Shown here: positions 3,308 through 62,883 of the stretch, piece by piece | How positions within the stretch are numbered: the stretch's first letter is position 1 | Layout: every line of letters begins with the position of its first letter | Virus record (IMG/VR): IMGVR_UViG_3300042562_000746 | Location: 62,251 to 126,250 of that record | Source of the DNA: a virus | Lineage: Duplodnaviria; Caudoviricetes | Strand: one strand, 5' to 3' | DNA length: 64,000 bases | Notes under the pieces: generated by a model | Told to the model about the DNA's origin: nothing | What the model saw: the letters and a program-made list of their open reading frames with translations, nothing else | Database searches by the model: none | Made by a program: the position numbers and the translations under genes

Positions 3308-5833
3308 TTAGAAGGAAAAGAATTCCTCTAATTTCTTTGAACTAAATGATGATTTTTCCCACCCTAATGCATTATAGAAATCATCCATTTTATTTTCTAA
3401 TTCTGCTTCAAATATTTTATCCACATCAATATACTTTTGGATAAACTCCATTATTTCAGGAGGGTCTTGATAACCCTTAAATGCTGCAGTTTCTAAACTT
3501 AATGGATTTTGTTTTAGATATACCCACTTAATCTTATCACCATCTCTCATAGGTGCATATTTGAAAGGGCAATTGAAATGTTTAAGTAATCTATTGTAAG
3601 TAATACCTGCTTTAATATGTGCAGGTGTTCCTTTCTCAAAATCACCCAATTGTTTATTTTTACCACCTTTATCATATCTACTAATTTCTTTAACTGCCCC
3701 ACCCTTTGCAATAAGTGCTACATCTAACCCAGCTAATGATAATTTAAACTCTGCTAGTTCAGTATCTACACTTTCATTTGTTTTACCTTGTAGAATATCT
3801 CTCAACATTCTCGCCATAAAATCTTGAAATGCTTTTGGAAAAGATGAACGAACTACATCTAATCCTTTTACATCTAACTTATCCATCGGTAAACCATTCG
3901 CTGCAACTATCCATTGTGCATATCTTTTTTTTGCAATCCAAATACCTGCTTTACTGATATACTCTTTCTTAATTTCAAATCTATGTTTCTTAATGTTGAA
4001 GAACTTATCTGCCATCATATCATAGAACTTATTTAAGAAATCCTGCACCTCACCTGCTATATCATCAATCTTTTCTGTCATTGCAGTATCATCAAACTCT
4101 GCCCAATTGGGAAATCTATGTTTAACTAATGGTAGGGCTGAAAAGAATACTGAATCCGTATCAATGTATATGTTATAATCTTCATTAGTACCCAACTCTT
4201 TGTTGTACTTAATGTTTACCATCTTTGCCGTATTCTTAATTACCGTTTGTCCCGTAGTGGTTACTGCCGCTGCATTATCCACATCATAAAAACGAAATGC
4301 AGGTAATCCTAATACTCCATATAAAGAGTTAAGTAAAATCTTTTGAACCAATTGTCTTTTAGCATAGAATGCGTGTTTTGCTGTATCACCTTCTTTACCA
4401 TATTTCTTTTCTAATTTACGGAACTCAACCCTTTGTTGAAACCACTCATCTAATATATCTGCAATCAATCCTACTTTCTCTTGTGTATATAATACTCCAT
4501 TAGATGATATAGATAAATTCTCCTCATTCAATTCCTTTCTCAATTCTTCGGTAGTATAATTAAGTGCCGTATGTTCTATGTTCCATACTCTATAATCACC
4601 TTTAACAAATGCTTCTGCATCAAAATTTGCAATCTTACCCACCTTTGTTTCGGGTGATATATTCAAACTCATAATAATTGATGGATATAGTGATGTCAAA
4701 TCCAAATCATATAACCAATCATACTTACCTGGTATCGGGTCTTTTACATATGCTCCAATGAAACCCTGCTCACCACTCTCTTTCAGAGCTTCCATTTGTT
4801 CCCTTCTATCTGATGGTTTGTTTGGTGCTACTAAGTTTCTTTTCTTTAAGTAGTTCAAACACGCTCCCTCTAAATACTTTGATGAATAGATATAATCCTC
4901 ATATGGAACGTGTCCAGCGTGACAGATACCTCTACATAAATCAATAAATTGTAATTTTCTATCCATCTCTACTACCAACTCAACATCCACAATATTATAC
5001 TCAATAAACTTTTCTAAATCCTCTTTAAATAAATCATCTAAACTTCCAGCATATTCAACTTTCTCTCTACCTAATTCTTTCTTTGCAATATAATTCAATG
5101 TATATGATGGTGATAACCCATAGTTATAGTTTTTATACAAAGTAATATAATCTAATATACTAACTCCCGCAAACGTCCATTTTTTTCTATATGGTGAATA
5201 AAACGCATCTCTAATTGGTGATAATCTATACGCATTTTGCTTACCCAATACATTAACTAAACGATTGAATAAATAAGGAATATCAAAGAAATCTATATTC
5301 CATCCTGTTAATATTGTAGGATTGATATGTTCGTAAATAGTTAAGAACGCATTAAGTAACTCTCTTTCACTTCTAAATGCCTTAATAATACGATTATCTT
5401 TTTTTATTGTATTTTGTAACTTACCTTCTTTATCTAAGACTAATGCATAGTAAGTATTTGTTGGTCCATCGTGCACCGCAATTGCTGTAATTTCATTTTC
5501 AGCTTTCTCTACATCCGGCAATCCGCTTTCCATTTCTACCTCAATATCAAAAGTAAGAACCACATGTCCTTCCGATGGTAAATCACTTTCCGAATATAAA
5601 TCTACTAAGATACGGGTTGTTTCGGGTACATCAGTTTCGTAATAAGCCGGGTCATCCTTTTGGAACTCATAGATTTTAGTAACCTTTGTACCATCTAATG
5701 CCGTTGATTGTCCTCGCTCTGCCGGGGCGTAAGCGTAGTTGAATGTTTTGTATGGGAATGTTTGATACCCTAATTTATCATCCCAAAGATGAACTAAATC
5801 CTTTCCTTTTTGTAAGTAGACGTTTTGATACAT
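3308..5833 (-). CDS. family B DNA polymerase (T4 gp43-like)
   Basis: Exo DIE and GWNIDFFD; polymerase DLTSLYPS, KILLNSLYG, YIDTDS. Confidence 0.97.
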   Translation of the reverse strand: MYQNVYLQKGKDLVHLWDDKLGYQTFPYKTFNYAYAPAERGQSTALDGTKVTKIYEFQKDDPAYYETDVPETTRILVDLYSESDLPSEGHVVLTFDIEVEMESGLPDVEKAENEITAIAVHDGPTNTYYALVLDKEGKLQNTIKKDNRIIKAFRSERELLNAFLTIYEHINPTILTGWNIDFFDIPYLFNRLVNVLGKQNAYRLSPIRDAFYSPYRKKWTFAGVSILDYITLYKNYNYGLSPSYTLNYIAKKELGREKVEYAGSLDDLFKEDLEKFIEYNIVDVELVVEMDRKLQFIDLCRGICHAGHVPYEDYIYSSKYLEGACLNYLKKRNLVAPNKPSDRREQMEALKESGEQGFIGAYVKDPIPGKYDWLYDLDLTSLYPSIIMSLNISPETKVGKIANFDAEAFVKGDYRVWNIEHTALNYTTEELRKELNEENLSISSNGVLYTQEKVGLIADILDEWFQQRVEFRKLEKKYGKEGDTAKHAFYAKRQLVQKILLNSLYGVLGLPAFRFYDVDNAAAVTTTGQTVIKNTAKMVNIKYNKELGTNEDYNIYIDTDSVFFSALPLVKHRFPNWAEFDDTAMTEKIDDIAGEVQDFLNKFYDMMADKFFNIKKHRFEIKKEYISKAGIWIAKKRYAQWIVAANGLPMDKLDVKGLDVVRSSFPKAFQDFMARMLRDILQGKTNESVDTELAEFKLSLAGLDVALIAKGGAVKEISRYDKGGKNKQLGDFEKGTPAHIKAGITYNRLLKHFNCPFKYAPMRDGDKIKWVYLKQNPLSLETAAFKGYQDPPEIMEFIQKYIDVDKIFEAELENKMDDFYNALGWEKSSFSSKKLEEFFSF

Positions 5834-5871: not shown

Positions 5872-6402
5872 TTATTTAATCTTTAATTTGAATTTCTTTC
5901 CGGATGGGATTGAATATACTGCAAAGATAGGCGTTACTTGAAATTGTAAATCTCGCATTCTATTTGTATATGATTGCCACATTTGTTTTTCTAAATAAGC
6001 AATTGTCATATGTGGCCTATAATCTGTAAATTCGTTTGAGTTTGGTAGTTTGCTTAATAGATGATGTGCTTTTTCTAATCCATCACCAACCGCATCCATT
6101 TTTAATACATCATAATTATCACTTTCAAAAACTGAAACATTACTTAGTTGTATATCCCCAAAATGAATCCTATCTAATAATTGTTGAACTATTTGTGGAG
6201 TTACGTTAGAATGTAATCCATATAACAAAGTGACGTGGGGTTCTGTTTCTTTACCATACTTACCACTACCATCATCGTAAATATCTTTATCATCTATAAT
6301 ACCGGTAAGTTGACTTTCATTAAAATCAAAGTATAACATTACACATCCATATTCGTAAGGACCGTTTTTAATTTCTTTAAGTATTTTTCTTAACTTAATC
6401 AT
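5872..6402 (-). CDS. 2H phosphoesterase (T4 57B/Acb1-like)
   Basis: Two HxT motifs: PHVTLLYG and PHMTIAY. Confidence 0.75.
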   Translation of the reverse strand: MIKLRKILKEIKNGPYEYGCVMLYFDFNESQLTGIIDDKDIYDDGSGKYGKETEPHVTLLYGLHSNVTPQIVQQLLDRIHFGDIQLSNVSVFESDNYDVLKMDAVGDGLEKAHHLLSKLPNSNEFTDYRPHMTIAYLEKQMWQSYTNRMRDLQFQVTPIFAVYSIPSGKKFKLKIK

Positions 6403-6896
6403 ATTACCTTTTCGAACATATCGTTTATTATTTTTTTATTTTCCATTGTATTTTCAATATCAAATATTAATGCAATTCTATTTTTAGTTCCCAAATTATT
6501 TACTTTATGTTTGTTTTGTATACTAAAATGATAAATGTATCCAGGAAACATTACAAATTCATATACTGCACTCATTTCTTCAACATAACTTAATACCAAT
6601 TCATTGGTTATGATTGGCATTATAAATCGTAATTTATCAGTATCGTTGTCGTCTACATGCCAATCTATATTTTTATTAGATGATTGAAAATGTAGTTTAA
6701 AATTTAATAAAGGGAATATTGAATTAAAGTATTCAAATGTAGTTTTGTAAACCGGATGTGATTCTAAAAAATTAGAGTCATTTATATAATCATTAACTCC
6801 ATTGTGATTAGAATGTGATTGTATATAATTACTATTTAAAGATTCATTTAATAAATTGTTAAATGTGATATTATCGTATTTTAATTTAACTAGCAT
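6399..6896 (-). CDS. 2OG-Fe(II) oxygenase, Asp/Asn beta-hydroxylase-like
   Basis: WHVD (HxD), distal HKVNN, RIALIFD. Confidence 0.7.
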   Translation of the reverse strand: MLVKLKYDNITFNNLLNESLNSNYIQSHSNHNGVNDYINDSNFLESHPVYKTTFEYFNSIFPLLNFKLHFQSSNKNIDWHVDDNDTDKLRFIMPIITNELVLSYVEEMSAVYEFVMFPGYIYHFSIQNKHKVNNLGTKNRIALIFDIENTMENKKIINDMFEKVI

Positions 6897-7453
6897 TAGC
6901 TTACTTTAAAATCTTCTTTTAATTTTTCTAAGAATTTTGCTATTCCTTTATTGTGATTTTTTTTCCAATCATTTGCATCACCATTATCCGAAATAAATTT
7001 ATATGAAACAAAATCAAAACCATATATTTTACATACTTTTGCAATTGAATATGCTTCCATATCACATACTGAACGTTTTGTATTACTTTGAAACGTATCA
7101 GTTGTAAAACATACATCACTATTACCAAATGTTAAAATTCCTGCTTCTAATTTAGGGTAAATTATATCATCAAATGGAGTAACATATTTTTTTGCAAATT
7201 GCTTAGTATCTATATCACCTTGTTGAAATTGTAAACATTTAATAAGTTCACCAATTTTATAATCAGATGAACCAGCTGAACCAAAGTTTATTACTATTGT
7301 TTCGGTTGGTGATAAATCTTTTAATATTTCAGTTGCTTTAATTGCTGCATTTACTTTACCAACCCCAGTGTATATAACATCCACTCCCATTGGTTCTAAT
7401 CCTTTTGGAAACTCACTTGGTAATGCAACAAACAATTTTATTCTCATACTCAT
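6896..7453 (-). CDS. MTA/SAH nucleosidase family (PNP/UDP fold)
   Basis: GVGKVNAA, NFGSAG, DMEAY, KFISD motifs. Confidence 0.85.
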   Translation of the reverse strand: MSMRIKLFVALPSEFPKGLEPMGVDVIYTGVGKVNAAIKATEILKDLSPTETIVINFGSAGSSDYKIGELIKCLQFQQGDIDTKQFAKKYVTPFDDIIYPKLEAGILTFGNSDVCFTTDTFQSNTKRSVCDMEAYSIAKVCKIYGFDFVSYKFISDNGDANDWKKNHNKGIAKFLEKLKEDFKVS

Positions 7454-7462
7454 AAATATACA

Positions 7463-8488
7463 CTATTTTTGAAACATATCCCATTTTAAGATAACATCTT
7501 CTGTGAACTTTTTGTAATTACAACTACTAACATGTCCCGTATGTCCTATTTCTCCAGTTAATAATGCGTTTTCTAATTTAGTTTGACTACCATATTTTTG
7601 ATATTCCATCCATAGTGGATTAAAATCGATATCCGTACTTTTTATTTGATTTCTGATTGTCCATTCAAATACTCCACCATATTTATGTAATCCTTCCTCT
7701 TCAAAAAACCAGCAATATTTATCCCAATCAATTGAATCATATAAATATTTTGCATATGGATAATCATCTACTCTAAGTTTGGTATCATCCCAAGTATTTA
7801 TAATATCTTTATCTTCAAAAATACCTTTAATCATTTTTTGTTTAGTAGGATATCCACCTGGCATTAAACCATAATCATATTTTAATGAAAATGAATTATG
7901 CATAAAGAAACATTTTAATTCAATACCATTTGCTTTACAAAATTGAATTAAATAATCAAAATATTCCAACCATTCTATATATCTACTTTCATCATTATAC
8001 AATGTTTCTAAGTAGGATTGATTGTATTGAAATACTCTTGGACTTTCCCTTTCAATTGAAGAATATTTCATATCGGGTATAGCTAAGTTTAACCAATATC
8101 CATTTTGACCTGAAAATTCTTTTTCTTTTAAATAATCGTTTACAAAATCGGCATGCTTTTCAAATTCAATATAAGGAGTAAGTTCCTTTGAAATAAAATG
8201 GGTACGTCTGAAATAAGATGACCATTGTATAATCATACTGATTTCTTTTGGGTCAACTCCGTTTTTTATTAGTTCTTTAGCTTTGTATAATGCAGAACGA
8301 ACAATCATTGAATTATTATTACCCGGACTACCCATGTTGTATATTTTGAGCTCCGGTAAAATTCTTTGTAACCAATGTGGATAGTACCACATTTGTTTAT
8401 CATCTCTTAAAAATGTATCATCACTACGATGGTAATTAACCCTTGCCGATGATGTAAATGAACAACCCGATGTAATTAAATATTTCAT
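7463..8488 (-). CDS. SGNH-like hypothetical protein
   Basis: Probable start MKYLITSGCSF at 8488 (the track's longer start overlaps the tRNA-like RNA); GCSFT, GN, QWS and late GH motifs. Confidence 0.6.
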   Translation of the reverse strand: MKYLITSGCSFTSSARVNYHRSDDTFLRDDKQMWYYPHWLQRILPELKIYNMGSPGNNNSMIVRSALYKAKELIKNGVDPKEISMIIQWSSYFRRTHFISKELTPYIEFEKHADFVNDYLKEKEFSGQNGYWLNLAIPDMKYSSIERESPRVFQYNQSYLETLYNDESRYIEWLEYFDYLIQFCKANGIELKCFFMHNSFSLKYDYGLMPGGYPTKQKMIKGIFEDKDIINTWDDTKLRVDDYPYAKYLYDSIDWDKYCWFFEEEGLHKYGGVFEWTIRNQIKSTDIDFNPLWMEYQKYGSQTKLENALLTGEIGHTGHVSSCNYKKFTEDVILKWDMFQK

Positions 8489-8500
8489 ACTTTTAATTTG

Positions 8501-8650
8501 CTGTAAGGGATGGATTCGAACCACCACAGGGAGATTCGGAAAGTAACATTGATGCTTGCAAGCTGGTGGTCAACCCCATATTACTTTTCTATTTCTATGT
8601 CCCTATCCTCGAGACGAGAGGACATGTCTGCCAAATTTCAACACCTTACA
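8501..8650 (-). ncRNA. 150-nt tRNA-like RNA with very long variable arm
   Basis: Acceptor TGTAAGG/CCTTACA, D-loop with GG, stem TCCTC/GAGGA closing loop TCGTCTC, ~80-nt insert, T-arm GGTGG-TTCGAAT-CCATC. Confidence 0.75.
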
Positions 8651-8855
8651 ATTTTTTATATACATTACTATTAACCGGTAAGGCTAATGAGTTATTGTGA
8701 TATAATATTTTTCCGTCATCCGAAAAACCGGTGATTGTTATTATCTCATCTTTATCTACATTGGCTAACATTTTATTACCCAACTTATCCGATATGATTA
8801 ATAATTTATCACCAATTACTAAATCTACATTAAATTTATTTGTTACCTTTTCCAT
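8646..8855 (-). CDS. hypothetical protein
   Basis: 69-aa ORF overlapping the upstream ORF, same strand as neighbours. Confidence 0.6.
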   Translation of the reverse strand: MEKVTNKFNVDLVIGDKLLIISDKLGNKMLANVDKDEIITITGFSDDGKILYHNNSLALPVNSNVYKKL

Positions 8856-9051: not shown

Positions 9052-9062
9052 AATCTAATTTG

Positions 9063-9147
9063 CGGAAGCTCAGGGATTCGAACCCCAGATACCTTTCAGT
9101 ATGACGGTTTTCAAGACCGTTCCATTCAACCACTCTGGCAAGCTTCC
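9063..9147 (-). tRNA. tRNA-Ser(TGA)
   Basis: Cloverleaf with long variable arm; loop CT-TGA-AA. Confidence 0.95.
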
Positions 9148-9152
9148 TATTA

Positions 9153-9422
9153 TTAATAGATATGTGTTTCTTCGTTTCTGAAATCACTCGTATCTAATTC
9201 AAATCTATTTTGTCTTATTCTAGCTTCCTCTGCTGCTTTATACCATCTAATCCAGGTCAAAGATGCATCAATAGGTGCCAATACCCATGCCATCATCAAT
9301 ACCATAATAGTATCCAATTCAGGAGAACCACCGGTAGGGTCATTTGAATATCGTTTGTCTAAGTTTTTAAATAACTGATAGAAACAATAAATAACACAAA
9401 TTACATAATAACTAACGAACAT
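9153..9422 (-). CDS. hypothetical membrane protein
   Basis: 89 aa with two hydrophobic segments. Confidence 0.65.
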   Translation of the reverse strand: MFVSYYVICVIYCFYQLFKNLDKRYSNDPTGGSPELDTIMVLMMAWVLAPIDASLTWIRWYKAAEEARIRQNRFELDTSDFRNEETHIY

Positions 9423-9582
9423 AACTTTCTTTTTTAGGTTTTATTGAAATTTTTATACTTTCTTCTTTTATATGAGGATTTACTTTTATAGTTGTTGCAC
9501 CATTTTTTTTATCGTGCATAAACACATAACTATGCACTTCTTTACCTATTAATTTTGCAATATTTTCTTTTGTAATCTCCAT
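9412..9582 (-). CDS. small hypothetical protein (56 aa)
   Basis: MEITKENIAKLIGKEVHSYVF...SYVR*; directly downstream of a promoter and overlapping the next start; below the ORF-track size cutoff. Confidence 0.55.
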   Translation of the reverse strand: MEITKENIAKLIGKEVHSYVFMHDKKNGATTIKVNPHIKEESIKISIKPKKESYVR

Positions 9583-9589
9583 TGTTCAT

Positions 9590-9621
9590 TAAATATACAA
9601 AAAATAAATTATACTACCAAA
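9590..9621 (-). promoter_or_regulatory. Bacteroidota-type sigma promoter
   Basis: TTTG-N20-TATATTTA. Confidence 0.6.
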
Positions 9622-9637
9622 TTTAGTAAAGTATTTG

Positions 9638-9711
9638 TGGGAAAGAATGGATTTGAACCAATGACCTTCGCATTATGAGTGCGCTGCTCTAACCATCTGA
9701 GCTACATTCCC
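9638..9711 (-). tRNA. tRNA-Met/Ile2(CAT)
   Basis: Cloverleaf, loop CT-CAT-AA; Met versus lysidine-Ile not resolved. Confidence 0.85.
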
Positions 9712-9943
9712 ATTATCGTTTAATCTAACGATAAAATCTGATATCGTTTCTTTCAACGATAAAAAAATAAGCAGGTGTGGAATCACCTACTTATATAGTG
9801 AATGAGAAACATATGAATCTCTTGCGGCTATATCACCAAAGCCCATAAGTTTTGTAACGGCTGTGCGGTTTGTGTCCGGGCTAACCCAAGTTTCCATTTC
9901 ATACTTAGCGTCTGTTCCGCCATTCTTACGAATCGTTACAATG

Positions 9944-10029
9944 TACCCCAGAACAGAATCGAACTGTCACTATCATTACTGATAACAAGATTTTAAGTCT
10001 TGCGCGTCTACCAATTTCGCCACCAGGGT
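9944..10029 (-). tRNA. tRNA-Leu(TAA)
   Basis: Cloverleaf with long variable arm; loop CT-TAA-AA. Confidence 0.95.
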
Positions 10030-10035
10030 ATTTCG

Positions 10036-10107
10036 TAGTCCGTCGTGGAATCGAACCACGAATATCTCATTAGAAGTGAGAAGTTATATCCATTTAACTA
10101 ACAGACC
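10036..10107 (-). tRNA. tRNA-Arg(TCT)
   Basis: Loop CT-TCT-AA, canonical T-arm. Confidence 0.95.
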
Positions 10108-10116
10108 TCTTTTATG

Positions 10117-10190
10117 CGGAATAGACGAGACTCGAACTCGCGACCTCCGCCGTGACAGGGCGGCGTTCTAACCAACTGAACTACCATTCC
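10117..10190 (-). tRNA. tRNA-Asp(GTC)
   Basis: Loop CT-GTC-AC, G discriminator. Confidence 0.95.
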
Positions 10191-10193
10191 AAT

Positions 10194-10293
10194 AAGATGA
10201 GAGATTAACTACGTCTAATTAATCAATGTATTTACTAGCTGCATCTCGAGTGAACCGGTATTACGGATGCTCACTTTCATCTACTCTCATCTT
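10194..10293 (-). ncRNA. putative structured ncRNA between tRNAs
   Basis: Perfect 10-bp closing stem AAGATGAGAG/CTCTCATCTT with internal hairpins. Confidence 0.5.
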
Positions 10294-10295
10294 TG

Positions 10296-10368
10296 AGCCC
10301 AGAGTCAGATTCGAACTGACGACCTACTCATTACAAATGAGTTGCTCTACCAACTGAGCTATCCAGGC
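10296..10368 (-). tRNA. tRNA-Thr(TGT)
   Basis: Loop TT-TGT-AA. Confidence 0.95.
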
Positions 10369-10376
10369 TTATATTG

Positions 10377-10448
10377 TACTCAGTACGGGATTCGAACCCG
10401 TATTACATCCGTGAAAGGGATGTGACCTAACCCTTAGTCGAACTGAGC
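10377..10448 (-). tRNA. tRNA-Glu(TTC)
   Basis: Loop CT-TTC-AC. Confidence 0.95.
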
Positions 10449-10452
10449 GTTA

Positions 10453-10560
10453 AAGGAAAGTAAAAGATGGGTGCGTGGACGATTACTTTTATGATTGGCT
10501 TTACTTTGGCTTTTAACCCCCTCACTCTACGATTTCTCATTTTGTTTCCCAATCAACCTT
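10453..10560 (-). ncRNA. putative structured ncRNA at the start of the second tRNA block
   Basis: Stems AAGG/CCTT, TGATTGG/CCAATCA, AAAGTAA/TTACTTT; begins just after a promoter. Confidence 0.45.
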
Positions 10561-10566
10561 ATATGT

Positions 10567-10598
10567 TAAATATACAATAATTTTCCCTATATACCAAA
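10567..10598 (-). promoter_or_regulatory. Bacteroidota-type sigma promoter for the second tRNA block
   Basis: TTTG-N20-TATATTTA. Confidence 0.65.
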
Positions 10599-10656
10599 AA
10601 ATTACCCTCAAAAAAATTTTCGGACTTTTGGTAAAAAGTGAAAAAAGTACATTTTG

Positions 10657-10731
10657 TACCGGTAATAGGATTCGAACCTATAATTGTATGGCTTCTAAGA
10701 CCACTGCGTATGCCAATTCCGCCATACCGGT
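10657..10731 (-). tRNA. tRNA-Leu(TAG), short variable loop
   Basis: Loop CT-TAG-AA; Leu-type D-arm but only a 6-nt variable region. Confidence 0.9.
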
Positions 10732-10738
10732 ATTTATG

Positions 10739-10823
10739 CGGAAAGTGTGAGATTCGAACTCACGGACCTTTAACAGTCGGCAGTTTAGTAAACTGCTGGT
10801 TTCAACCACTCACCCAACTTTCC
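10739..10823 (-). tRNA. tRNA-Ser(ACT)
   Basis: GCAGT-TT-ACT-AA-ACTGC, long variable arm, G discriminator. Confidence 0.9.
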
Positions 10824-10827
10824 TTTG

Positions 10828-10899
10828 GGTGTAAGGACGGTATCGAACCGTCTTATCTAGCTCCACAAACTAGCGCTTCACCTTAAAGCTTCAAACACC
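10828..10899 (-). tRNA. tRNA-His(GTG)
   Basis: Loop TT-GTG-GA, encoded G-1 opposite C73. Confidence 0.9.
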
Positions 10900-10904
10900 A
10901 TTTG

Positions 10905-10974
10905 AGGTTAGTGTTAGAATCGAACTAACTCCGTAAGATTTGCAGTCCCACCGGCCTCCACGACCTAACTAACC
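10905..10974 (-). tRNA. tRNA-Cys(GCA)
   Basis: Loop CT-GCA-AA, U discriminator, short D-loop. Confidence 0.85.
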
Positions 10975-10979
10975 ATTTG

Positions 10980-11052
10980 TAGTTTCAGTAGGATTCGAAC
11001 CTACACTCTAACATCCGTAGTGTTATGTGATAATCCATTTCACTATGAAACT
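10980..11052 (-). tRNA. tRNA-Arg(ACG)
   Basis: Loop CT-ACG-GA. Confidence 0.93.
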
Positions 11053-11057
11053 ATTTG

Positions 11058-11128
11058 CACGCAGTGAAGGAATTGAACCCTCTCCTTTGGTTTTGGAGAC
11101 CAATTGGCTGCCATAGCCTACCACGCGT
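11058..11128 (-). tRNA. tRNA-Trp(CCA)
   Basis: Loop CT-CCA-AA; imperfect acceptor stem. Confidence 0.8.
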
Positions 11129-11131
11129 TTG

Positions 11132-11204
11132 TAGGAATAACAAGATTCGAACTTGTGACATCTAACGTATCAGATTAGCACTCTACCAGCTGAGTTATAT
11201 TCCT
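11132..11204 (-). tRNA. tRNA-Ile(GAT)
   Basis: Loop CT-GAT-AC. Confidence 0.93.
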
Positions 11205-11209
11205 ATATG

Positions 11210-11283
11210 TTGGGAATGCAGGATTCGAACCTACGGCCTCTAGCTCCCAAAGCTAGCGCGATACCGGACTACGCTAATTCCCA
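11210..11283 (-). tRNA. tRNA-Pro(TGG)
   Basis: Loop TT-TGG-GA. Confidence 0.95.
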
Positions 11284-11288
11284 TTTTG

Positions 11289-11360
11289 TTATCGGACCTG
11301 GACTTGAACCAAAACTAATAGAATCAAAATCTATTGTGCTGCCAATTACACCATCCGACA
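11289..11360 (-). tRNA. tRNA-Gln(TTG)
   Basis: Loop TT-TTG-AT, U1-A72 pair. Confidence 0.92.
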
Positions 11361-11440
11361 ATTTCCAATTTTGTTATCACCATTTCCTGGTGTGCTAATA
11401 CACTAAACTTCCAGGCGTGTTCCGGATTGGTAACCGTTTG

Positions 11441-11513
11441 AGCAGATGAGAGGAATCGAACCTCCGTCTCCTACTTGGAAGGAAGGAGTAATGAACCATT
11501 ATACGACATCTGC
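11441..11513 (-). tRNA. tRNA-Gly(TCC)
   Basis: Loop CT-TCC-AA, U discriminator. Confidence 0.93.
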
Positions 11514-11531
11514 ATATCAAATAAACAATTG

Positions 11532-11603
11532 AGGGAAGGGAGAATTACGATATCTCGACCTGATGATTAACAGTCATCTGCTCTGCCGCTGAGCTACCAT
11601 CCC
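11532..11603 (-). tRNA. tRNA-Asn(GTT), atypical T-loop
   Basis: Loop CT-GTT-AA; T-loop ATCGTAA instead of TTCGAAT. Confidence 0.8.
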
Positions 11604-11640
11604 AAAAACAAAAAACCCCAACTAATTAAAGTCAGGGTTT
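11604..11640 (-). terminator. intrinsic terminator (attenuator) immediately upstream of the tRNA block
   Basis: AAACCCTGACT-TTAATT-AGTTGGGGTTT followed by TTTGTTTTT. Confidence 0.8.
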
Positions 11641-11672
11641 TCTAAAATTCTTAATATAAATCTAGCCTAACT

Positions 11673-11741
11673 TTACATATCTCTGCTACCCCAAATCTGA
11701 TTCGGTGTGCTACAAAGTGTATGTAATGTCAATGCTTTCAT
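11673..11741 (-). CDS. putative attenuator leader peptide (22 aa) MKALTLHTLCSTPNQIWGSRDM
   Basis: ATG 6 nt after a TATATTTA element; stop codon lies in the 5' arm of an antiterminator. Confidence 0.65.
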   Translation of the reverse strand: MKALTLHTLCSTPNQIWGSRDM

Positions 11742-11839
11742 TTGTTATAAATATAATCGAATTAAAAAAGTAATCAATCTTCAAAATACGCCACGTCAAG
11801 TCATGCTCCGGTTAATACTAGCCTCGATGAATTACTCTG

Positions 11840-11880
11840 CTATCATTATTGGAATCGAACCAACATTAACCATTATGATA
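11840..11880 (-). ncRNA. tRNA minihelix-like element (no anticodon arm)
   Basis: TATCAT/ATGATA acceptor-like stem plus GTTGG-TTCGATT-CCAAT T-arm, joined by about 9 nt containing TGG. Confidence 0.5.
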
Positions 11881-11887
11881 AAATAAA

Positions 11888-12760
11888 ATAGGGATGAGAA
11901 TACTCCATATTGTGAACCAGCTTTAGAAAGATTATTAGTTCCTTCCGTTTCCACTACCTTTTGAGTAGTACCAATTCAATGTGGATGATTTAAGACTATC
12001 AGTCTTTAAGTTGCCGATTACTCTCTACTTAATCATTTTCTTCAAGCCTCGCAGCCTAATTAATTCTTGCGGAATTAGAAACCTTTCGATAGAATCACAG
12101 ACTTCTTGCGGAAGTATCGTGGCTAAGAACAGCTCTTAACTATGTACACACCTTTCACCTGCAACTGGTAAACACTTAAGCTTAATTTTTAAATTGTAGT
12201 TTTTACACCGAAGTAAAAATTGAGTTTTAGTTTATAGAATTATTCAGGTAGTGGTTTACCACTAGCTCCCCCAACTTTTGGTCGAGAGAATACTAAACTA
12301 CCCGATGCAATATCCCTACTGCGTTATTTTGAGTCATCTTCATTGAGTAGTTTTGGTAAACTAGTTCAAAGGATAGTAACAGCACCACCTGTACACAGTC
12401 TTATCTTACGTCCTTTCGGATGGTTTGATGTTAAGACCACTCTGATAATGAATACCGCAATGATGTAGAGGGATTAAGTCTACATTTCTTACTGATATTC
12501 TATGGGTTATTCTTATTGGTGTTCCCACCTCAATTAGAGTATCTATAATACCCCAATTATTCTGACTGTTCCGATATAGTGTTACCCTTTCGTACAAAGC
12601 CTAAATAATATCCCACTTGCATACTTGAGTTAGTCTCTCCTTACGGGGAAAGTAACCGCAGATGTATCACTTAATACACCCACTTTATCCTTGTTTCCAA
12701 GTTTATTTACCGACCATATGCGGCCGTTATTCACTATGTAAGATAAACTTACTATGTGAA
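11888..12760 (-). ncRNA. large ornate ncRNA, GOLLD-like (boundaries approximate)
   Basis: ~870 nt with no credible ORF, higher GC than flanks, many GNRA-capped hairpins (GAAA, GCAA, GTAA), own promoter, located among tRNAs. Confidence 0.65.
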
Positions 12761-12809
12761 ATATTTTCAATAATGTAAAGAACTTTTTAGGTGTTACCCT
12801 ATTGTTTTA

Positions 12810-12841
12810 TAAATATACGATAATTTTTTCAAAGTACCAAA
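12810..12841 (-). promoter_or_regulatory. Bacteroidota-type sigma promoter for the large ncRNA
   Basis: TTTG-N20-TATATTTA. Confidence 0.65.
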
Positions 12842-12914
12842 TATTTGTAAACTTTTTTTCCTAAGATTGAATACCGAGTATCTTTCATCACCTATAAGTT
12901 CCAATCTTATAAAT

Positions 12915-12946
12915 TAAAGATACGATATGTTTTTCAATCTACCAAA
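12915..12946 (-). promoter_or_regulatory. Bacteroidota-type sigma promoter
   Basis: TTTG-N20-TATCTTTA. Confidence 0.7.
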
Positions 12947-13048
12947 TTTCTTTGGGTTTTTTATTTTGTTAGGATATCCGGCTTTCTTCGGTGTCGAACA
13001 CCTCACTCAATCGGTTTTATTAGTTGATGGCTTCAACCCTAACATTTG

Positions 13049-13121
13049 TTGCGATGGGAAGATTCGAACTTCCGACCTCTAGGTTATGAGCCTAGCGAGC
13101 TACCTCTGCTACTACATCGCG
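13049..13121 (-). tRNA. initiator tRNA-fMet(CAT)
   Basis: C1:A72 mismatch, loop CT-CAT-AA. Confidence 0.9.
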
Positions 13122-13125
13122 ATAT

Positions 13126-13499
13126 TGGTGGAGATGAAGGGAGTCGAACCCTTGTCTTACAAAGTAATCATAATACCAGCATGTCACACGTTTAGAATAA
13201 AGTTTTAATCTTACTAACTTTTCAAAAGAATTGAGGCTGTATGGTTAGTACAACGGTCCACCACTTTGTTTTGAAATAACAAAGAAAACGATTTCACATT
13301 CTATTTAATTGTCCCATGATGTGTACGGGAGTAATTATGCTGCTACAGCGTAATCGGCACCGATGAAATCCATTAAGGAATCAAAGGTCATAGTTGACAT
13401 TTCGTCAGTTATTGTTTTGTGCAGTTTTAAAGAGTTTCTAGCACTTACCTCTACGTGTGATACTACAATTCTCATTGCAATCAATTCCAAAGCATCCCC
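13126..13499 (-). ncRNA. ssrA: tmRNA
   Basis: GGGGATG.../CATCTCC-ACCA acceptor with G3:U70, T-arm GGGTTCGACTCCC, tag frame 13406-13335 DEMSTMTFDSLMDFIGADYAVAA*. Confidence 0.93.
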
Positions 13500-16710: not shown

Positions 16711-17228
16711 ATTGTTTCTATGTTTTTGTCTGCAACTAGTCTTAATCTAAAAACTATTCCAGGGATGATACCATCTTTTTTACTTGTCCAAACTATATCT
16801 GAATCTTTTACAAATCCATTTCTATAATAAAAGTTAACTGCTTTATCATTATATTTTCTAACTGTCAGAAATAAATTTTCTGCGTATTGTGATTTACAAT
16901 ATTCTATAAACTCAAATAAAATCTTTTTAGCATTTCCATTGTGTTGGTCGATATTTGCAATTTGATGTAAAATAAAATCACCACTTTTTTTATAAGTGGT
17001 TGCGTTTCTACTCATCTTACCATGTCCTTTGTATTTACTAAATGTAATTACAACCCCATCTTGCAATATAATATTACCTTTCTTAATATATTTTTCAAGT
17101 TTATAACCTTGCTTATATAAGTGTGGAAATATTTCTGGATACAAATCTATAATTGCCATAGCCTGATTTGTGGCTACAATCATTTCATTTGTACCTCGTT
17201 CTGCTTTTACAAAGTTAAGCATATTCAA
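16701..17228 (-). CDS. GNAT-family acetyltransferase
   Basis: LHQIA...HNGNAK, LTVRKYNDKAVNFYYRNGF. Confidence 0.8.
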   Translation of the reverse strand: MNMLNFVKAERGTNEMIVATNQAMAIIDLYPEIFPHLYKQGYKLEKYIKKGNIILQDGVVITFSKYKGHGKMSRNATTYKKSGDFILHQIANIDQHNGNAKKILFEFIEYCKSQYAENLFLTVRKYNDKAVNFYYRNGFVKDSDIVWTSKKDGIIPGIVFRLRLVADKNIETICI

Positions 17229-18672
17229 AAAATTTATTTAGGTTTAGAGTGTCTTTATACAAATATAACTCTTTTAATTTAGATTTCAAAATATCCTTAC
17301 GGCTTTCTATCAATTCACCCGTCCTTGCCCCCTTTGCAAAGAAAACTTTAGGTCTCCAAAGTAGTTCATCACTAATTTCGCCACTAAAAGCTGCTCTTAA
17401 AAGTGGTTTCATATGTCCTTTTTCTTTCTGATATAATGGTGGAATGTTTAAACTATATTCTACAAATGGTCTCCAACTATATGGTGTACGAACTTCAACT
17501 GTCCCACCCCACATTATAGATTGATTGGTAGTTAAGAAATTTGTTTTATGCACATCCTCTACTAACTTCCGTCTTGCCTTATCATAATCATCCGGCTTAT
17601 AATGAAATGCTTGAATGTGACCATAACTTCCCCAAATTTCATCCGATAAATCTCCGCTGAATACTACTTTAAATCCCAACTCGTCTATCTTTTTTCCTAA
17701 TGCAACTTGAGCAATTGCACTACCTAAGTTTTGCCAACGGTCTTGTTCAATAACATAAAGAGTTTCATCAATTGCATTTATAACATCATCTTCTGTTAAT
17801 ATAATTTCATGTAGTTTTACATTAAATTCTTTAGCTGCAATTCTTGCGTATTTAATATCATCGTTTATTGTATTACCATCACCCATTGATACCACAAACG
17901 CTTCTATATCAGGTTTTATTTTAGAAAGTAAGTAGGTTATAATTACACTATCAATACCACCGCTAAGAATTGTACAAATAGGAACATCAGAAACCATTTT
18001 TACTTTTACCGCTTCATCTAATTGTTTCCTAATATTTTTAATAATAGTTTCTCTATCATCATTTATAATTTCAGTTGGTAAAGTGTAGTATGTTTTAATA
18101 CTATTCTCTAATGTTTTATAATTGTATTCTATATAAGTTCCAGGATAAACTGTCTTAACTTGTTTTTCGTATAAATCTGCGGTTGGTAATCCTTTTTTTT
18201 CTGATGCGAATACTAACTTACCATCATTATCAATTGCATACCACAAAGGTAATTCACCAACATAATCTCTTACAATAAATGCAGTATTAATTCTACTATC
18301 GACTATACAAAAAGAAAACATACCATCCAATTCAATGAATGATTCAACTCCAAATTGTAAGTATGCATTTAAAATTATTTCTGTATCTGATTTTGTTTTT
18401 CTAGGGAGTGAAATTTTTTCCTCTAATTTTTTTGTGTAATCACTTTCCCATAACTCACCATTGTACACAATACAAACTGATTTATCGTCATTCCACATTG
18501 GTTGATTTGCAGATGACGATAAATCTTGTATTGAAAGGCGGTTGTGTCCGATATAAAAATTATCTACAACATCTACTTGAGAAGCATCTCTGCCTCTATG
18601 AATTATTTTATTTAATTGGGTAAAGGTTTGCTCTTTAGATGTAAACCAGTTACCACCTATTATTCCACACAT
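17215..18672 (-). CDS. asnB: asparagine synthetase B-like glutamine amidotransferase
   Basis: N-terminal MCGI (Ntn Cys), HRG, RLSIQD, NGE, LSGGIDS, SGDLSDE. Confidence 0.88.
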   Translation of the reverse strand: MCGIIGGNWFTSKEQTFTQLNKIIHRGRDASQVDVVDNFYIGHNRLSIQDLSSSANQPMWNDDKSVCIVYNGELWESDYTKKLEEKISLPRKTKSDTEIILNAYLQFGVESFIELDGMFSFCIVDSRINTAFIVRDYVGELPLWYAIDNDGKLVFASEKKGLPTADLYEKQVKTVYPGTYIEYNYKTLENSIKTYYTLPTEIINDDRETIIKNIRKQLDEAVKVKMVSDVPICTILSGGIDSVIITYLLSKIKPDIEAFVVSMGDGNTINDDIKYARIAAKEFNVKLHEIILTEDDVINAIDETLYVIEQDRWQNLGSAIAQVALGKKIDELGFKVVFSGDLSDEIWGSYGHIQAFHYKPDDYDKARRKLVEDVHKTNFLTTNQSIMWGGTVEVRTPYSWRPFVEYSLNIPPLYQKEKGHMKPLLRAAFSGEISDELLWRPKVFFAKGARTGELIESRKDILKSKLKELYLYKDTLNLNKFFEYA

Positions 18673-60400: not shown

Positions 60401-62883
60401 GCTATCGAAGCACTTAAAGCGGTTTCAGAAGCTACACTTGCAGAGAATGAAGTTGCAAATGCTCCACTTACTGAACTTACACTTGCACTTACATTTGTAA
60501 TTTCTGCTACACTTGCACTAAATCTACTATCTACTGATTGAGAATATAAAGTTACATTTCCAATACCAGTTATAGTTGATGCACTTAATTCAGCTGATAT
60601 AGTTACTGATGTATCAATTGTAACACCATTAGTTGCATCAATAGTAATAGTTTGTGCACCATCATCAATTTTTAGATAGTTGGTATCATCACCAAAGAAA
60701 CTATATGATGCATTACCTTTAATATGAATATCAGAAGGGGCTGTGTTATATATTTCAACTTTTCTTGCATCATTAACATCTGGTTGTAAAAATATACTTC
60801 CAGTACCTTTAATTTCATTAGTTACGATTAAAGAAGAACTTATTATTTGCTCACCTTTAAATGTATTTGAACCGGTTGTTGCATATGAACCAGTCAATGC
60901 TTCTAAACCAGAAACTCTACTTCCTAATGAACCACCTGTACCGATAGAAGATTCTATTGATGCAACTCTACTATTTACTGATGTAGAATATGCCGTTACA
61001 TTACCGATACCTGCTATTGTTGAAGAACTAATTTCACCACTTACATCTAAATCACCAGTTACGATAATTGTAGATGCACTTTGTTCCATTATAGAATCAC
61101 CAATATGGTCATCACCGGTTGCCACAGGTATTCTACCACTTGTTAATCCAACTTCTTCTCCTAATGAACCCGTATTTTTAGGACCAGCAATTAACATTGC
61201 GGAGTTATAAGGTGCTCCACTATCTGCCGGATGCTCATATAACCAATGATTGTTTATTGAATCCCACCATAAAGAACCTGTTCCTGCATTTGAACCACTA
61301 TCTATTACCGAAATACCACCGAATCTAACTGCAGGTGATGCGGTATTTAATACTATTGTATTTGTACCAATTGATACTGCACTTGCGGTTACATTCAATA
61401 AAGATGAAGAACCATATATAGTTACATCACCTGTTACAGATAACGAACCACTAATAATTTGGTTTGCTTTGAATGTATTTGAACCAGTTGTTGCATATGT
61501 AGTTTCAATTACACCTAATCTATCTGATTGTGCATTATCTGTTAATGCTATTGAAGCACTTAATGCTACTCTTGCTGCCGCTGATGCTGAAAAATCCGTT
61601 GCAACACTACTACTAAATGTACCACCTACTGATGCTACACTTGCAGATAATGCTGCGATTTCTGCGTTACTTGCAGATGTTGATGTTGCAAACGCACCAC
61701 TAATTGCAGTTACATTTGCTGCACTTGCTGAGAATGAAGTTGCAACAGATGAACTTACTGAACTTAATTGAGATGCTGCATATGCTGCACTTGCTGAATC
61801 CGTTGTTGCAATTGAAGCACTTAATGAAGTTACACTTGCTGCACTTGCACTAAATGAAGTTGCTACTGCACCACTTACTGAATTTAATTGTGAAGCTGCA
61901 TATGCTGCACTTGCACTATCAGTTGTTGCTATTGAAGAACTTAAATTTGTTATTGTTGTTGCTACCGCACCACTTAAAGCAGTTTGAGAAGCGGCACTTG
62001 CTGAGAAAGAAGTTGCTACTGATGAACTAAAGTCACCAGTTACACTTGCTACTGAAGCACTTAATGCTGAAATTTGATATGCTGATGCTGAATCAGTTGT
62101 TGCAATTGAAGAACTTAAATTTGTTATTGTTGTTGCTATCGCTCCACTTAATGCGGTTTGAGAAGCTACACTTGCAGAATCAGTTGTTGCTATTGAAGAA
62201 CTTAAAGCTGTTTGAGAAGCTGCACTTGCACTAAATGAAGTTGCTACCGCACCACTTAAAGCAGTTTGAGAAGCTGCACTTGCAGAATCAGTTGTTGCAA
62301 TTGAAGAACTTAAATTTGTTATTGTTGTTGCAATTGCACCACTTAATGCAGTTTGAGAAGCTGCACTTGCACTATCAGTTGTTGCTATTGAAGCACTTAA
62401 TCCGGCAAAACCAAATACTGATTGTGAGAATGCATTTAGATTTGCGGTACTTGCACTAAATGAGGTTGCAACCGAAGAACTAAAATCACCAGTTACACTC
62501 GCGATACTTGCTGCACTTGCACTAAATGAAGTAGCTACTGAAGCACTAAATGTACCAATGTTACCTGTTAAGTCTGGAGTTGTATTACCATCTGCACCTA
62601 ATAAGAATAAAGTGTTACTACTACTTGCATAGAAAGGAACACCATCCATTAGATTTCCGTAAGATGAAGCAGAGAATATAGGAGCTGTTGCACCTTGTAG
62701 TACTCTGTTTGCAGCTACTACTGAACCACTTTCTACTGCCGCAAATACTATACCTTGTCCGTTAGTTACGCCTGTTAATTTACTTGAACCGGTAGCTATT
62801 AAAATCTCACCTTTTTGAAGTGAGCCGGTTGCTGAAGATAGTCTGTCTAAACTACCACGTCTATTCTTAATGATTTGTGCCAT
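57415..62883 (-). CDS. giant Ser/Ala-rich repetitive fibre protein (1822 aa)
   Basis: N-terminal RRGSL...LQKGE; many SAS heptad-like repeats; ends IDGGSF. Confidence 0.85.
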   Translation of the reverse strand: MAQIIKNRRGSLDRLSSATGSLQKGEILIATGSSKLTGVTNGQGIVFAAVESGSVVAANRVLQGATAPIFSASSYGNLMDGVPFYASSSNTLFLLGADGNTTPDLTGNIGTFSASVATSFSASAASIASVTGDFSSSVATSFSASTANLNAFSQSVFGFAGLSASIATTDSASAASQTALSGAIATTITNLSSSIATTDSASAASQTALSGAVATSFSASAASQTALSSSIATTDSASVASQTALSGAIATTITNLSSSIATTDSASAYQISALSASVASVTGDFSSSVATSFSASAASQTALSGAVATTITNLSSSIATTDSASAAYAASQLNSVSGAVATSFSASAASVTSLSASIATTDSASAAYAASQLSSVSSSVATSFSASAANVTAISGAFATSTSASNAEIAALSASVASVGGTFSSSVATDFSASAAARVALSASIALTDNAQSDRLGVIETTYATTGSNTFKANQIISGSLSVTGDVTIYGSSSLLNVTASAVSIGTNTIVLNTASPAVRFGGISVIDSGSNAGTGSLWWDSINNHWLYEHPADSGAPYNSAMLIAGPKNTGSLGEEVGLTSGRIPVATGDDHIGDSIMEQSASTIIVTGDLDVSGEISSSTIAGIGNVTAYSTSVNSRVASIESSIGTGGSLGSRVSGLEALTGSYATTGSNTFKGEQIISSSLIVTNEIKGTGSIFLQPDVNDARKVEIYNTAPSDIHIKGNASYSFFGDDTNYLKIDDGAQTITIDATNGVTIDTSVTISAELSASTITGIGNVTLYSQSVDSRFSASVAEITNVSASVSSVSGAFATSFSASVASETALSASIATTDSASAAYAASQLSSVSGAVATSFSASAASIALVSASLSSVSGAFATSTSASNFEITSLSASVASVGGTFSSSVATDFSSSTAARVALSASIYQTDATQSVNIQSLTSKTGSYATTGSNTFNGDQVLTGSFDMTGTANFNNAVAVNDSNMNLGNSSSLNLTGGSSIYVGGVGTISGSIVGIGNVSLYSASVNSRFSASAYDISVLSASVASVGGTFSSSVATDFSASTAARVALSASIASDVNTLSSSIYQTDATQSNSITNNSSSFATSLSASAASQTSLSASLATTDSASVALITSVSASVTSISGAFATSTSASNYQITELSASVASVGGTFSSSVATDFSSSTAARVALSASVSGTINTLSTSVDSRLRSEEFKSTTFATTGSNGFVGTQNITGDVVVTGSVYIQFGQDLVTNHISGNQGRIELGNIDNNISIIADNELMLTATGSGVHVHNANFSVSPSGLNNNVLVVSASQTTITNELSASNISGVGNIGAFSQSVDSRFSSSVYEVTQLSASVASVGGTFSSSVATDFSASTAARVALSASIATDFSASVASQTALSGAVASTITNVSSSLATTDSASAFTTATNLSVVSGAVATSFSASAANVTSISSSFSSSLSAVSASLASNGNTQTGRIDALETYSSSLKTAIELTGSSVTIQGDLLVRGTTTSVNSTTIELGDNIIELNGTGATNGGLYIKDVTAPNTATGSLLWDSTNDYWKAGTKNSESKVLLAIGDSVVSGGAQIAIADLDGYADYNDAIYTDINAASASAWGAFQSASSFSQSFATSTSASNYQITELSASVASVGGTFSQSVATDFSASNAARVALSASIASTDSTQTTNITEASASAWGAFQSASSFSSSFATSLSASVASQTIFSSSVATSISASAANVTSISGAFATSTSASNANITALSASVASVTGDFSSSVATSFSASAYVVSALSASIYLTDATQSTDITNNSSSFATSISASNYRITTLETTIDGGSF

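Follow-up and report, generated by a model that had tools for sequence, protein, structure and literature searches.

A tRNA-derived RNA family with a giant variable arm and aspartate identity determinants in Bacteroidota and their phages

Comparison with its relatives shows that a 150-nt element at positions 8501 to 8650 (minus strand) of a 64,000-nt stretch of Caudoviricetes DNA (positions 62,251 to 126,250 of IMG/VR record IMGVR_UViG_3300042562_000746; the whole stretch is called the window below) is an intact member of a conserved, structured, transfer RNA (tRNA)-derived RNA family. The same comparison shows that Bacteroidota carry this family in their own genomes as a multi-copy gene, and that lake and marine phages hold copies of it in their tRNA arrays. 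As to its role, we consider it an even call, judged from the sequences, that the RNA would be matured like a tRNA and read by aspartyl-tRNA synthetase (AspRS) without serving as a decoder, its large variable arm acting as a docking module. A sequence-only reading of the window, made without database searches, had described a 150-nt tRNA-shaped RNA with a giant structured arm; the conserved cloverleaf and the covariation presented here uphold that description, and the RNA lies on the minus strand.

Structure and covariation of the tRNA-like element

The 3' 24-mer of the element recurs exactly in 10 IMG/VR contigs, and two further sequence patterns matched 33 and 69 loci. A pattern combining an apical hairpin of the arm (Va) with the T loop matched 27 more viral contigs and at least 80 loci in a collection of species-representative genomes; because its gap was set to 45 to 75, as against approximately 42 in the window's subclade, only members with a longer apex were retrieved. 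The numbers of members given here are minima, and the list of taxa carries a bias. A covariance model (CM R1) applied to 86 sources identified 43 full viral members scoring at least 112 bits, three shorter variants (L014, L071, and L050), and ten class-II "tRNA-Asn(GTT)"-like genes of 82 to 85 nt at 65 to 69 bits, with ordinary tRNAs reaching at most 48.5 bits. It also confirmed 19 of the viral loci from the Va and T-loop pattern. In total, the model recognizes 46 viral and 74 bacterial members, of which 117 are distinct; the window element scores 155.6 bits and is the only copy matched in the 126-kb virus record (65% complete).

A hand-drawn secondary structure of 40 pairs is supported by a MAFFT alignment, blind to structure, that comprises 24 distinct members. 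In this alignment, 97.9% of the cells are paired and 22 of the 40 pairs show compensatory change, compared with 45 to 59% and 4 to 7 pairs in controls in which the partners were slid by 1 to 3 columns. Most of the hand-drawn helices were recovered independently by RNAalifold. In a second alignment, in which all 117 distinct sequences were aligned to the model and which therefore leans towards it, the paired cells amount to 96.0% and compensatory change is found in 31 of the 40 pairs (with slid controls reaching no more than 57% and 15 pairs). The folding energy of the window element is unremarkable (z = -0.93 for the whole element and -0.55 for the arm alone); since single-sequence folding is unexceptional, the support for the structure is comparative and not thermodynamic. 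The check proposed earlier, a covariance model built from homologs, thus gave strong covariation, and the accompanying Rfam check found no family.

The element escapes standard detection. With default settings, ARAGORN makes no call at the window element or in ten bacterial loci. Rfam 15 gives no family at the window element, either at the gathering threshold or at E values up to 10, and nothing at the bacterial copies; the tRNA family RF00005 has no match at the window element at E values up to 10 or in the bacterial loci at E values up to 1, and none of the Rfam intron families matches the window element. A blastn search of the element against the phage collection returned no match.

The acceptor stem of the window element comprises 7 bp (8650 to 8644 with 8508 to 8502). 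Its 5' strand, UGUAAGG (8644 to 8650), has near-invariant U1 and G2 and covarying pairs 4 to 7, and its 3' strand, CCUUACA, occupies 8501 to 8508 together with the discriminator G73 (position 8501), which is present in 117 of 117 distinct members. No CCA is encoded. U8 and G9 lie between the acceptor stem and the D arm, and G26 follows the latter. The D arm (8624 to 8641) is of the tRNA-Leu type, with a 3-bp stem, A14, A15, G18, and G19; its stem is N10-N25, U11-A24, and G12-C23, and the first two pairs covary (32 and 12 cells changed on both sides). The body is therefore a regular tRNA with a Leu-type D arm. The T arm, GGUGG UUCGAAU CCAUC (8509 to 8525; helix 9), is 98.5% paired, with three covarying pairs. 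All three arms had been read as intact. This holds for the 7-bp acceptor and for the T arm with its loop TTCGAAT (8525 to 8509); the D arm has the covarying 3-bp stem, but the window's own copy is mismatched (U.U) at 10-25. The anticodon-like arm (8606 to 8622) consists of a 5-bp stem, UCCUC/GAGGA, which is 99.8% paired, and a 7-nt loop, UCGUCUC (8611 to 8617), which is the TCGTCTC of the earlier description, with C33 and U37.

The variable arm spans 77 nt in the window (8528 to 8604), lies where class-II tRNAs have theirs, with U44 before it and the T arm after it, and is supported by covariation; across the family its length is 40 to 160 nt, for members of 100 to 233 nt overall. From base to tip, it begins with 4 bp, a 4-nt bulge opening with a conserved A, and 3 bp, all three of which covary. 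In the window, these are AGGG, ACAU, and AGA on the 5' side (8594 to 8604), paired with 8528 to 8534, and compensatory change is seen in six of the seven pairs (helices 4 and 5). The internal loop that follows has the consensus R-A-Y-A-R-A on the 5' side (AAUAGA, 8588 to 8593) opposite C-K-A-A on the 3' side (CCGAA, 8535 to 8539), with the AA invariant in 117 of 117 members; we take it to recall the UAA/GAN internal-loop motif, a likeness by name only. Beyond it stands a stem of 9 to 10 bp (8578 to 8587 paired with 8540 to 8549; helices 6 and 7), which shows compensatory change in eight of nine pairs and terminates in a conserved AUA/UGU that contains a fixed U.G (104 of 109). Both of the nested stems noticed at the outset, TAGGGA/TCCCTG and AAAGTAATAT/ATGTTACTTT, are kept by compensatory changes in the relatives.

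The apex, usually a three- or four-way junction, carries two hairpins. Va (8565 to 8577; G-GGG-UUGA-CC(A)C-C in the window, with a bulged A) is conserved in sequence where present, with the family form GGG-UWGA-CC(A)C, whereas Vb (8554 to 8563), a perfect 10-nt palindrome, GCUUGCAAGC, in the window, varies among members. The two mini-hairpins described previously are both there, although GGTTGACC is better drawn as part of the hairpin N-GGG-UWGA-CC(A)C-N', whose closing pair is G-C in 29 cases and U-A in 21, and GCTTGCAAGC is the variable apical hairpin. Some members have an extra hairpin in the D loop or one more at the apex, and natural short forms of 100 to 113 nt (L014, L153, and L262) keep the internal loop and lose the apex. 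Perfect palindromes of at least 8 nt occur in 24 of 73 distinct Vb regions (10 words), compared with 3.6 in shuffled sequences, and in 6 of 13 D-loop hairpins, compared with 1.1 expected; examples in Vb and in the D-loop inserts of L012, L024, L033, and L051 include 10-mers with self-complementary 4-nt centers. Mononucleotide shuffles, which served as the null model, are a rough standard for hairpins, and at these places the hairpins of many bacterial members are ordinary. Such palindromic hairpins would suit the self-pairing of two RNAs.

Three other pairings were considered and rejected. The minimum-free-energy fold ATGTCC/GGACAT, which encloses the anticodon-position loop, cannot form in relatives with GGGATTAAG. 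A pairing of GACCACC with the 5' strand of the T stem is contradicted by the variation of that stem (GGTGG, GAGTGG, GGAGG, GAAGG, and TATAGG) while GACCAC is constant. A contact between the anticodon loop and the Va loop shows no covariation (in L260, C37 occurs with a UCGA loop).

Distribution in Bacteroidota and their phages

Among the matches listed, CM R1 found 67 members in 46 of 80 genome loci, 45 of which are labeled as Bacteroidota lineages and 1 as "uncultured bacterium"; the 34 model-negative loci belong to other phyla and are chance matches of the pattern. The carriers include Saprospiraceae, Chitinophagaceae/Chitinophaga, Flammeovirga, Flavilitoribacter, Lacibacter, and Phnomibacter, together with "Sphingobacteriales" and "Flavobacteriales" metagenome-assembled genomes. 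Of 151 Bacteroidota species genomes sampled evenly, 15 are carriers (13 at 90 bits or more, and G064 and G048 on inspection). The other 26 matches in this sample, of 82 to 88 nt and 54 to 62 bits, are ordinary genes, and the four that were inspected are all tRNA-Leu. At 15 of 53 bacterial loci, there are two to five copies, often in tandem: Flammeovirga pacifica (L136) has five with a 197-nt period, short and long forms alternate in L153, and a terminator-like hairpin follows each copy in L260. No tRNA was found in ten 8-kb bacterial loci, i.e., the bacterial copies lie outside tRNA arrays. A canonical tRNA-Asp(GTC) is also present in the four carrier genomes that were checked, and the family RNA is therefore additional to the normal tRNA set.

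The window copy is at most 73% identical to the bacterial members (120 shared columns). Because the element belongs to a Bacteroidota gene family, the phage of the window most likely infects a host of this phylum. The element had been taken for a phage-specific mimic. This does not stand, as it is a copy of a cellular multi-copy family, which also weakens the idea of a decoy evolved by the phage. The proposal that the RNA is matured through tRNA-like ends fits its spacing in the phage arrays of L003, L008, L010, and L018, where copies lie a few nucleotides from neighboring tRNAs. Decayed or truncated copies are seen at the viral loci L027 (2908 to 3047) and L050 (3806 to 3922), which are without the 5' acceptor strand and D arm, and at the bacterial locus L147 (5356 to 5501), which is without the anticodon loop.

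The stretch is present in many lake metagenomes and in contigs from four RNA-library runs of three studies. In these RNA-library contigs, which contain the element itself or close variants of it, the arm is whole and no joint bridges the insert; this gives a weak indication that the element is transcribed and that the arm is not excised. The 50-nt contig of the X18 run (depth 2135) is a homologue and does not derive from the window phage; the contigs of the RNA runs do not cover 8351 to 8365 or 8666 to 8755, and those of X17, which stop at 8501/8510 next to adapter letters, are uninformative about the RNA ends.

In the window, the element occupies the gap between two minus-strand open reading frames (ORFs). 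The stop codon of the upstream ORF (8646 to 8855) lies within the first acceptor bases, and the next ORF begins 12 nt past the discriminator. The element is the last RNA gene of an array (9062 to 13499) that lies upstream on the same strand and contains 19 tRNAs, the RNA GOLLD (11891 to 12305), and transfer-messenger RNA (13126 to 13499). Downstream, at 5872 to 7453 on the minus strand, are a 2H-phosphoesterase/2'-5' RNA-ligase-like gene (Acb1, below the cut-off) and a PNP_UDP_1 nucleosidase-like gene, which directly adjoin the element in several related phages; beyond them lies a family-B DNA polymerase gene (3308 to 5833).

Aspartate determinants and the role of the RNA

Outside the tRNA core, the first pair is U1-A72 in all 117 distinct members, and G2-C71 is found in 116 of 117. 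In the anticodon-position loop, G34 is found in 114 of 116, U35 and C36 in 116 of 116, and C38 in 117 of 117. The two bases flanking the anticodon position behave differently: at position 37, U occurs 113 times and C 4 times among the 117, and a purine never, while position 33 is U in 102, C in 9, A in 4, and G in 1 of 116. Position 32 is also variable. Nine distinct members, 7 of them viral and 2 bacterial, have the loop UCGUCUC of the window element; in the majority of members the loop is YUGUCUC. Of the two anomalies reported earlier, the pyrimidine at 37 is thus universal, whereas the lack of U33 is confined to the window's subclade. Where canonical tRNAs have U33 with a purine at 37 and a variable region of 4 to 5 nt or approximately 10 to 20 nt, the window element has C33, U37, and 77 nt. 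The earlier judgment that the RNA is unlikely to decode agrees with the universal pyrimidine 37, the unfixed position 33, and the 40- to 160-nt arm.

According to the available portions of Giege and Eriani (2023; PMC9976931), the strong identity determinants for aspartate are G73, G34, U35, C36, and C38, with G2-C71 as a minor one. Compared with this list, the conserved set is the full published AspRS set, placed in a loop that breaks the decoding rules. Of the window's canonical tRNAs, tRNA-Asp scores best against the family model (35.9 bits). The suggestion of a tRNA mimic directed at synthetases gains support from the conservation of all five determinants, but the other half of that suggestion, a decoy for anticodon nucleases, is weakened.

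These observations lead to a reading in several steps. The RNA would very probably be transcribed with its array and cut out like a tRNA (by RNase P, 3' trimming, and CCA addition), as it has the ends and the spacing of a tRNA gene. With the same high probability it would fold into an L, given the retention of U8, A14, G18, G19, and the T loop. Because the invariants outside the core coincide with the published aspartate determinants, it may then be recognized, and probably charged, by AspRS, a step we put forward with reserve. The pyrimidine at 37, the unfixed position 33, and the bulky arm would probably keep the RNA off the ribosome. The arm would provide a docking surface for a putative partner, and the RNA would be an aspartate-accepting or AspRS-binding carrier or regulator and not a decoder. 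The phage copy would top up the host supply during infection.

Several points weigh against recognition by AspRS or against the scheme as a whole. Bacterial tRNA-Asp has G1-C72, which is said in the accessible text of PMC9976931 to help position the 3' end in AspRS, and the family has U1-A72 instead. G10 is not conserved (A in 65, U in 38, and G in 14), and two bacterial copies have U34 (loop CUUUCUC). A class-II arm with G73 is, in what is available of PMC7609411, also a signature of seryl-tRNA synthetase (SerRS) substrates, and both features, an extended variable arm as well as G73, occur in the family. One of the search patterns fixed part of the loop, so that its invariance is partly forced, although loop-independent patterns retrieve members with the same loop. 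The anticodon-stem sequence is near-invariant, which AspRS recognition alone does not explain. No shared neighbor gene was found in the flanks of 15 bacterial loci, in which the ORFs were read but not run against Pfam, and the phage genes next to the element are common only to related phages. Finally, two of the RNA-library contigs extend into the flanks, and DNA carry-over is possible.

An unlikely alternative is that the RNA is a functional RNA on a tRNA scaffold, in which the arm serves as a protein-binding or RNA-RNA module, the conserved loop binds a partner other than AspRS, and the body matters only for processing and stability, charging being irrelevant. The invariant unpaired bases of the arm (the AA and A-Y-A-R-A), the conserved hairpin, and the short forms that dispense with the apex while retaining the internal loop all speak for it, and the excess of palindromic hairpins suits self-association, subject to the crude null and the many bacterial members with ordinary hairpins. 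A second tRNA-Leu-like scaffold family with hypervariable middles in the same phage arrays and the presence of GOLLD in the same array are further points in its favor. It leaves unexplained the coincidence with the aspartate determinants, including G73, which is far from the arm, and a shared neighbor gene that could encode the partner was not found at the 15 bacterial loci. A more specialized proposal, which we regard as improbable, is that the family provides a dedicated carrier tRNA for reactions of amino acids away from the ribosome; AspRS would load it with aspartate, and U1-A72 and the arm would then recruit an amidotransferase or another modifying or transferring enzyme. By analogy with tRNA-Sec, whose shape recruits its own enzymes, the product would pass to metabolism or to a non-ribosomal acceptor; phages would keep the pathway running, and the RNAs would pair through their self-complementary loops. 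According to passages of PMC9976931, U1-A72 is the determinant for amidation of Asp-tRNA(Asn) by the amidotransferase. Of the GatCAB features, for which G1-C72 and U20a count as antideterminants, U1-A72 is present in the family, and the extra D-loop bases after G19 are C, A, and G, with no U; the window's own tRNA-Asn starts with G. The genes gatB and asnS are both present in 15 of 15 carriers, and overall in 126 and 118 of the 151 genomes, respectively, a pattern that does not discriminate, and the tRNA-dependent asparagine route is kept as speculation only. The phage also encodes an asparagine-synthase-like protein (17215 to 18672, minus strand; GATase_7 and Asn_synthase, E = 2.5e-46). This AsnB-like gene was rejected as a partner, as its presence is inconsistent: Asn_synthase is above the cut-off in one of four other element-bearing virus records and in none of five without the element, and the gene is missing from two complete element-bearing records.

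Two further readings are each very unlikely. As a decoy or sponge, the RNA would occupy enzymes that attack or bind tRNAs with GUN anticodons and so shield tRNA-Asp. Its anticodon arm is indeed tRNA-Asp-like except at position 37, phages carry it beside a canonical tRNA-Asp, and the 2H-phosphoesterase gene lies just downstream in several related phages; against this, the family is chromosomal and tandemly multiplied in free-living bacteria, no linked defense or toxin genes were seen at the 15 bacterial loci inspected, neither the conserved acceptor end with G73 nor the structured arm of 77 nt is required of a decoy, and the 2H linkage is limited to one phage lineage (8 of 112 viral loci). As a genuine decoding tRNA, it would be an aspartate isoacceptor or a serine-charged class-II tRNA reading GAY. 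A pyrimidine at 37 throughout, C, A, or G at position 33 in 14 members, an arm of up to 160 nt, and hosts that already have a canonical tRNA-Asp all argue otherwise, and serine at aspartate codons would be harmful, even though the complete cloverleaf with a 7-nt loop, U33 in 102 of 116, the tandem multi-copy layout typical of busy tRNA genes, and the fit of the class-II arm and G73 to SerRS are what a decoder would show. The possibility that the insert is a removed intron or mobile insertion, or that the gene is dead, is largely refuted and has a negligible share. With relaxed settings, ARAGORN proposes a "tRNA-Thr(cgt) with a 55-nt intron", a call that was discarded because it needs a mismatched stem and is contradicted by the covariation, and a few copies are decayed, as described above. 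However, the insert is in the variable region and not in the anticodon loop, the covarying pairs and the invariant loop bases persist across phyla-level distances, no Rfam intron family matches, and the RNA contigs, as a weak indication, contain no joint. The outcomes that the sequence-only reading held out against itself, decay of the gene and excision of the insert, run counter to the strong covariation and, as a weak indication, to the RNA-library contigs.

Relation to known RNAs and neighboring RNA arrays

The closest relatives in form are class-II tRNAs. As in tRNA-Leu, the arm of the family emerges after U44 and before position 48, and the D arm has a 3-bp stem, A.A at 13-22, and an AA..GG loop; tRNA-Leu genes are also the next-best matches of the family model. 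The discriminator, for which A73 is the tRNA-Leu determinant, is G in the family; the arm measures 40 to 160 nt instead of approximately 10 to 20, the loop is YUGUCUC with a pyrimidine at 37, and the first pair is U1-A72. With tRNA-Asp, the family shares G73, G34, U35, C36, C38, and G2-C71, and the loop of most members differs from that of the phage's own tRNA-Asp at position 37 only. It differs in U1-A72, the class-II body, and U37, has no sequence similarity elsewhere, and exists beside a separate host tRNA-Asp.

YrlA and other bacterial Y RNAs, as described in the available part of PMC4201824, likewise mimic the D and T arms of tRNA, carry a large extra module, and occur in bacteria and phages. 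In that account, however, YrlA has both its ends within the Ro60-binding stem and a closed stem-loop as its "acceptor", whereas the present family has an ordinary acceptor stem built from its two ends, possesses an anticodon arm, and bears its extra module as the variable arm. The Y-RNA families of Rfam gave no match at E values up to 10, a Y RNA would be encoded beside rsr, but the ORFs read in 15 bacterial flanks contained no shared gene, and identity with YrlA was rejected because the topology differs. The tRNA-Sec and allo-tRNAs resemble the family, to judge from the text available of PMC5389517 and PMC7609411, in their long arms, G73, and occurrence in bacteria and their phages, and through their unusual shape they recruit enzymes dedicated to the chemistry of the amino acid bound to the tRNA; these RNAs have 8/5, 8/4, or 9/3 geometry and decode, whereas the family has 7/5 geometry, an arm several-fold longer, and a non-decoder loop. 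On this comparison, the element lacks defining features of class-II tRNAs, tRNA-Asp, YrlA, and tRNA-Sec/allo-tRNAs. The tRNA cluster of T4 encodes two stable RNAs (species 1 and 2) of approximately 140 nt, whose function is not known. They resemble the element in being small RNAs encoded among the tRNA genes of a phage, a likeness drawn from their general description.

No description of the family was found in Rfam 15 or in the literature searched, although the supplementary motif lists of Weinberg 2010/2017 and Chen 2014 could hold it; the available portions of PMC4201824, PMC5737381, PMC2864571, PMC7609411, PMC13219725, and PMC9976931 contain no description of it. This multi-copy Bacteroidota RNA family is apparently previously undescribed.

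Several other RNAs were noted in these arrays. The second tRNA-Leu-like scaffold family (L018, 5130 to 8251; L021, 10174 to 10808; L003, 4907 to 5973; L030, 5065 to 5412; and others) conserves the 5' acceptor strand and D arm and the 3' T arm and acceptor strand, with discriminator A and a hypervariable middle of 40 to 90 nt; it numbers 27 copies of 78 to 158 nt in 10 viral loci, with up to 7 per locus. The class-II-shaped "tRNA-Asn(GTT)" genes of 82 to 85 nt (L036, L040, L049, L053, L059, L063, L065, L068, L069, and L079) have the loop TTGTTTC (U37, C38), U1-A72, G73, and the T arm of the element, and are its short-armed cousins. In L007, a tRNA-Leu(UAA)-like gene (12502 to 12613, minus strand) has a 26-nt insert in the anticodon loop; the tRNA-Leu(TAA) of the window (9943 to 10029) is normal.

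Within the window, the 742 nt between the Rfam GOLLD match and the next tRNA (12306 to 13047) are 68 to 77% conserved in the divergent phages L107, L108, L067, L098, L014, and L021; they probably represent the 5' half of GOLLD that the model does not cover. At 11852 to 11860 (minus strand), immediately 3' of the GOLLD match, is a T-loop-like GTTCGATTC where no tRNA is called. The tRNA-Asn(GTT) at 11531 to 11603 (minus strand) has an atypical T-loop region, unlike the GTTCRANTC of other tRNAs. The non-coding gap between tRNA-Met and tRNA-Leu (9712 to 9942), of which the first approximately 55 and the last approximately 50 nt recur in many related loci, has two ATCGTT..AACGAT hairpins within that last part and may be an element or a promoter.

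If the present account is correct, an abundant, tandemly amplified tRNA derivative that escapes both ARAGORN at default settings and Rfam 15 is present in no fewer than 15 of the 151 Bacteroidota species sampled and in many of their phages. The gaps in phage tRNA arrays, where the second scaffold family was also found, would deserve re-examination, and the element would mark the hosts of a large group of lake phages that are uncultured. The family would be a case in which a natural tRNA body is used as the chassis for an RNA module of approximately 80 to 160 nt, and it offers a testable object in the cultivable Flammeovirga, with five copies at one locus. In the biology of AspRS or of aspartate and asparagine, it would be a new candidate participant.

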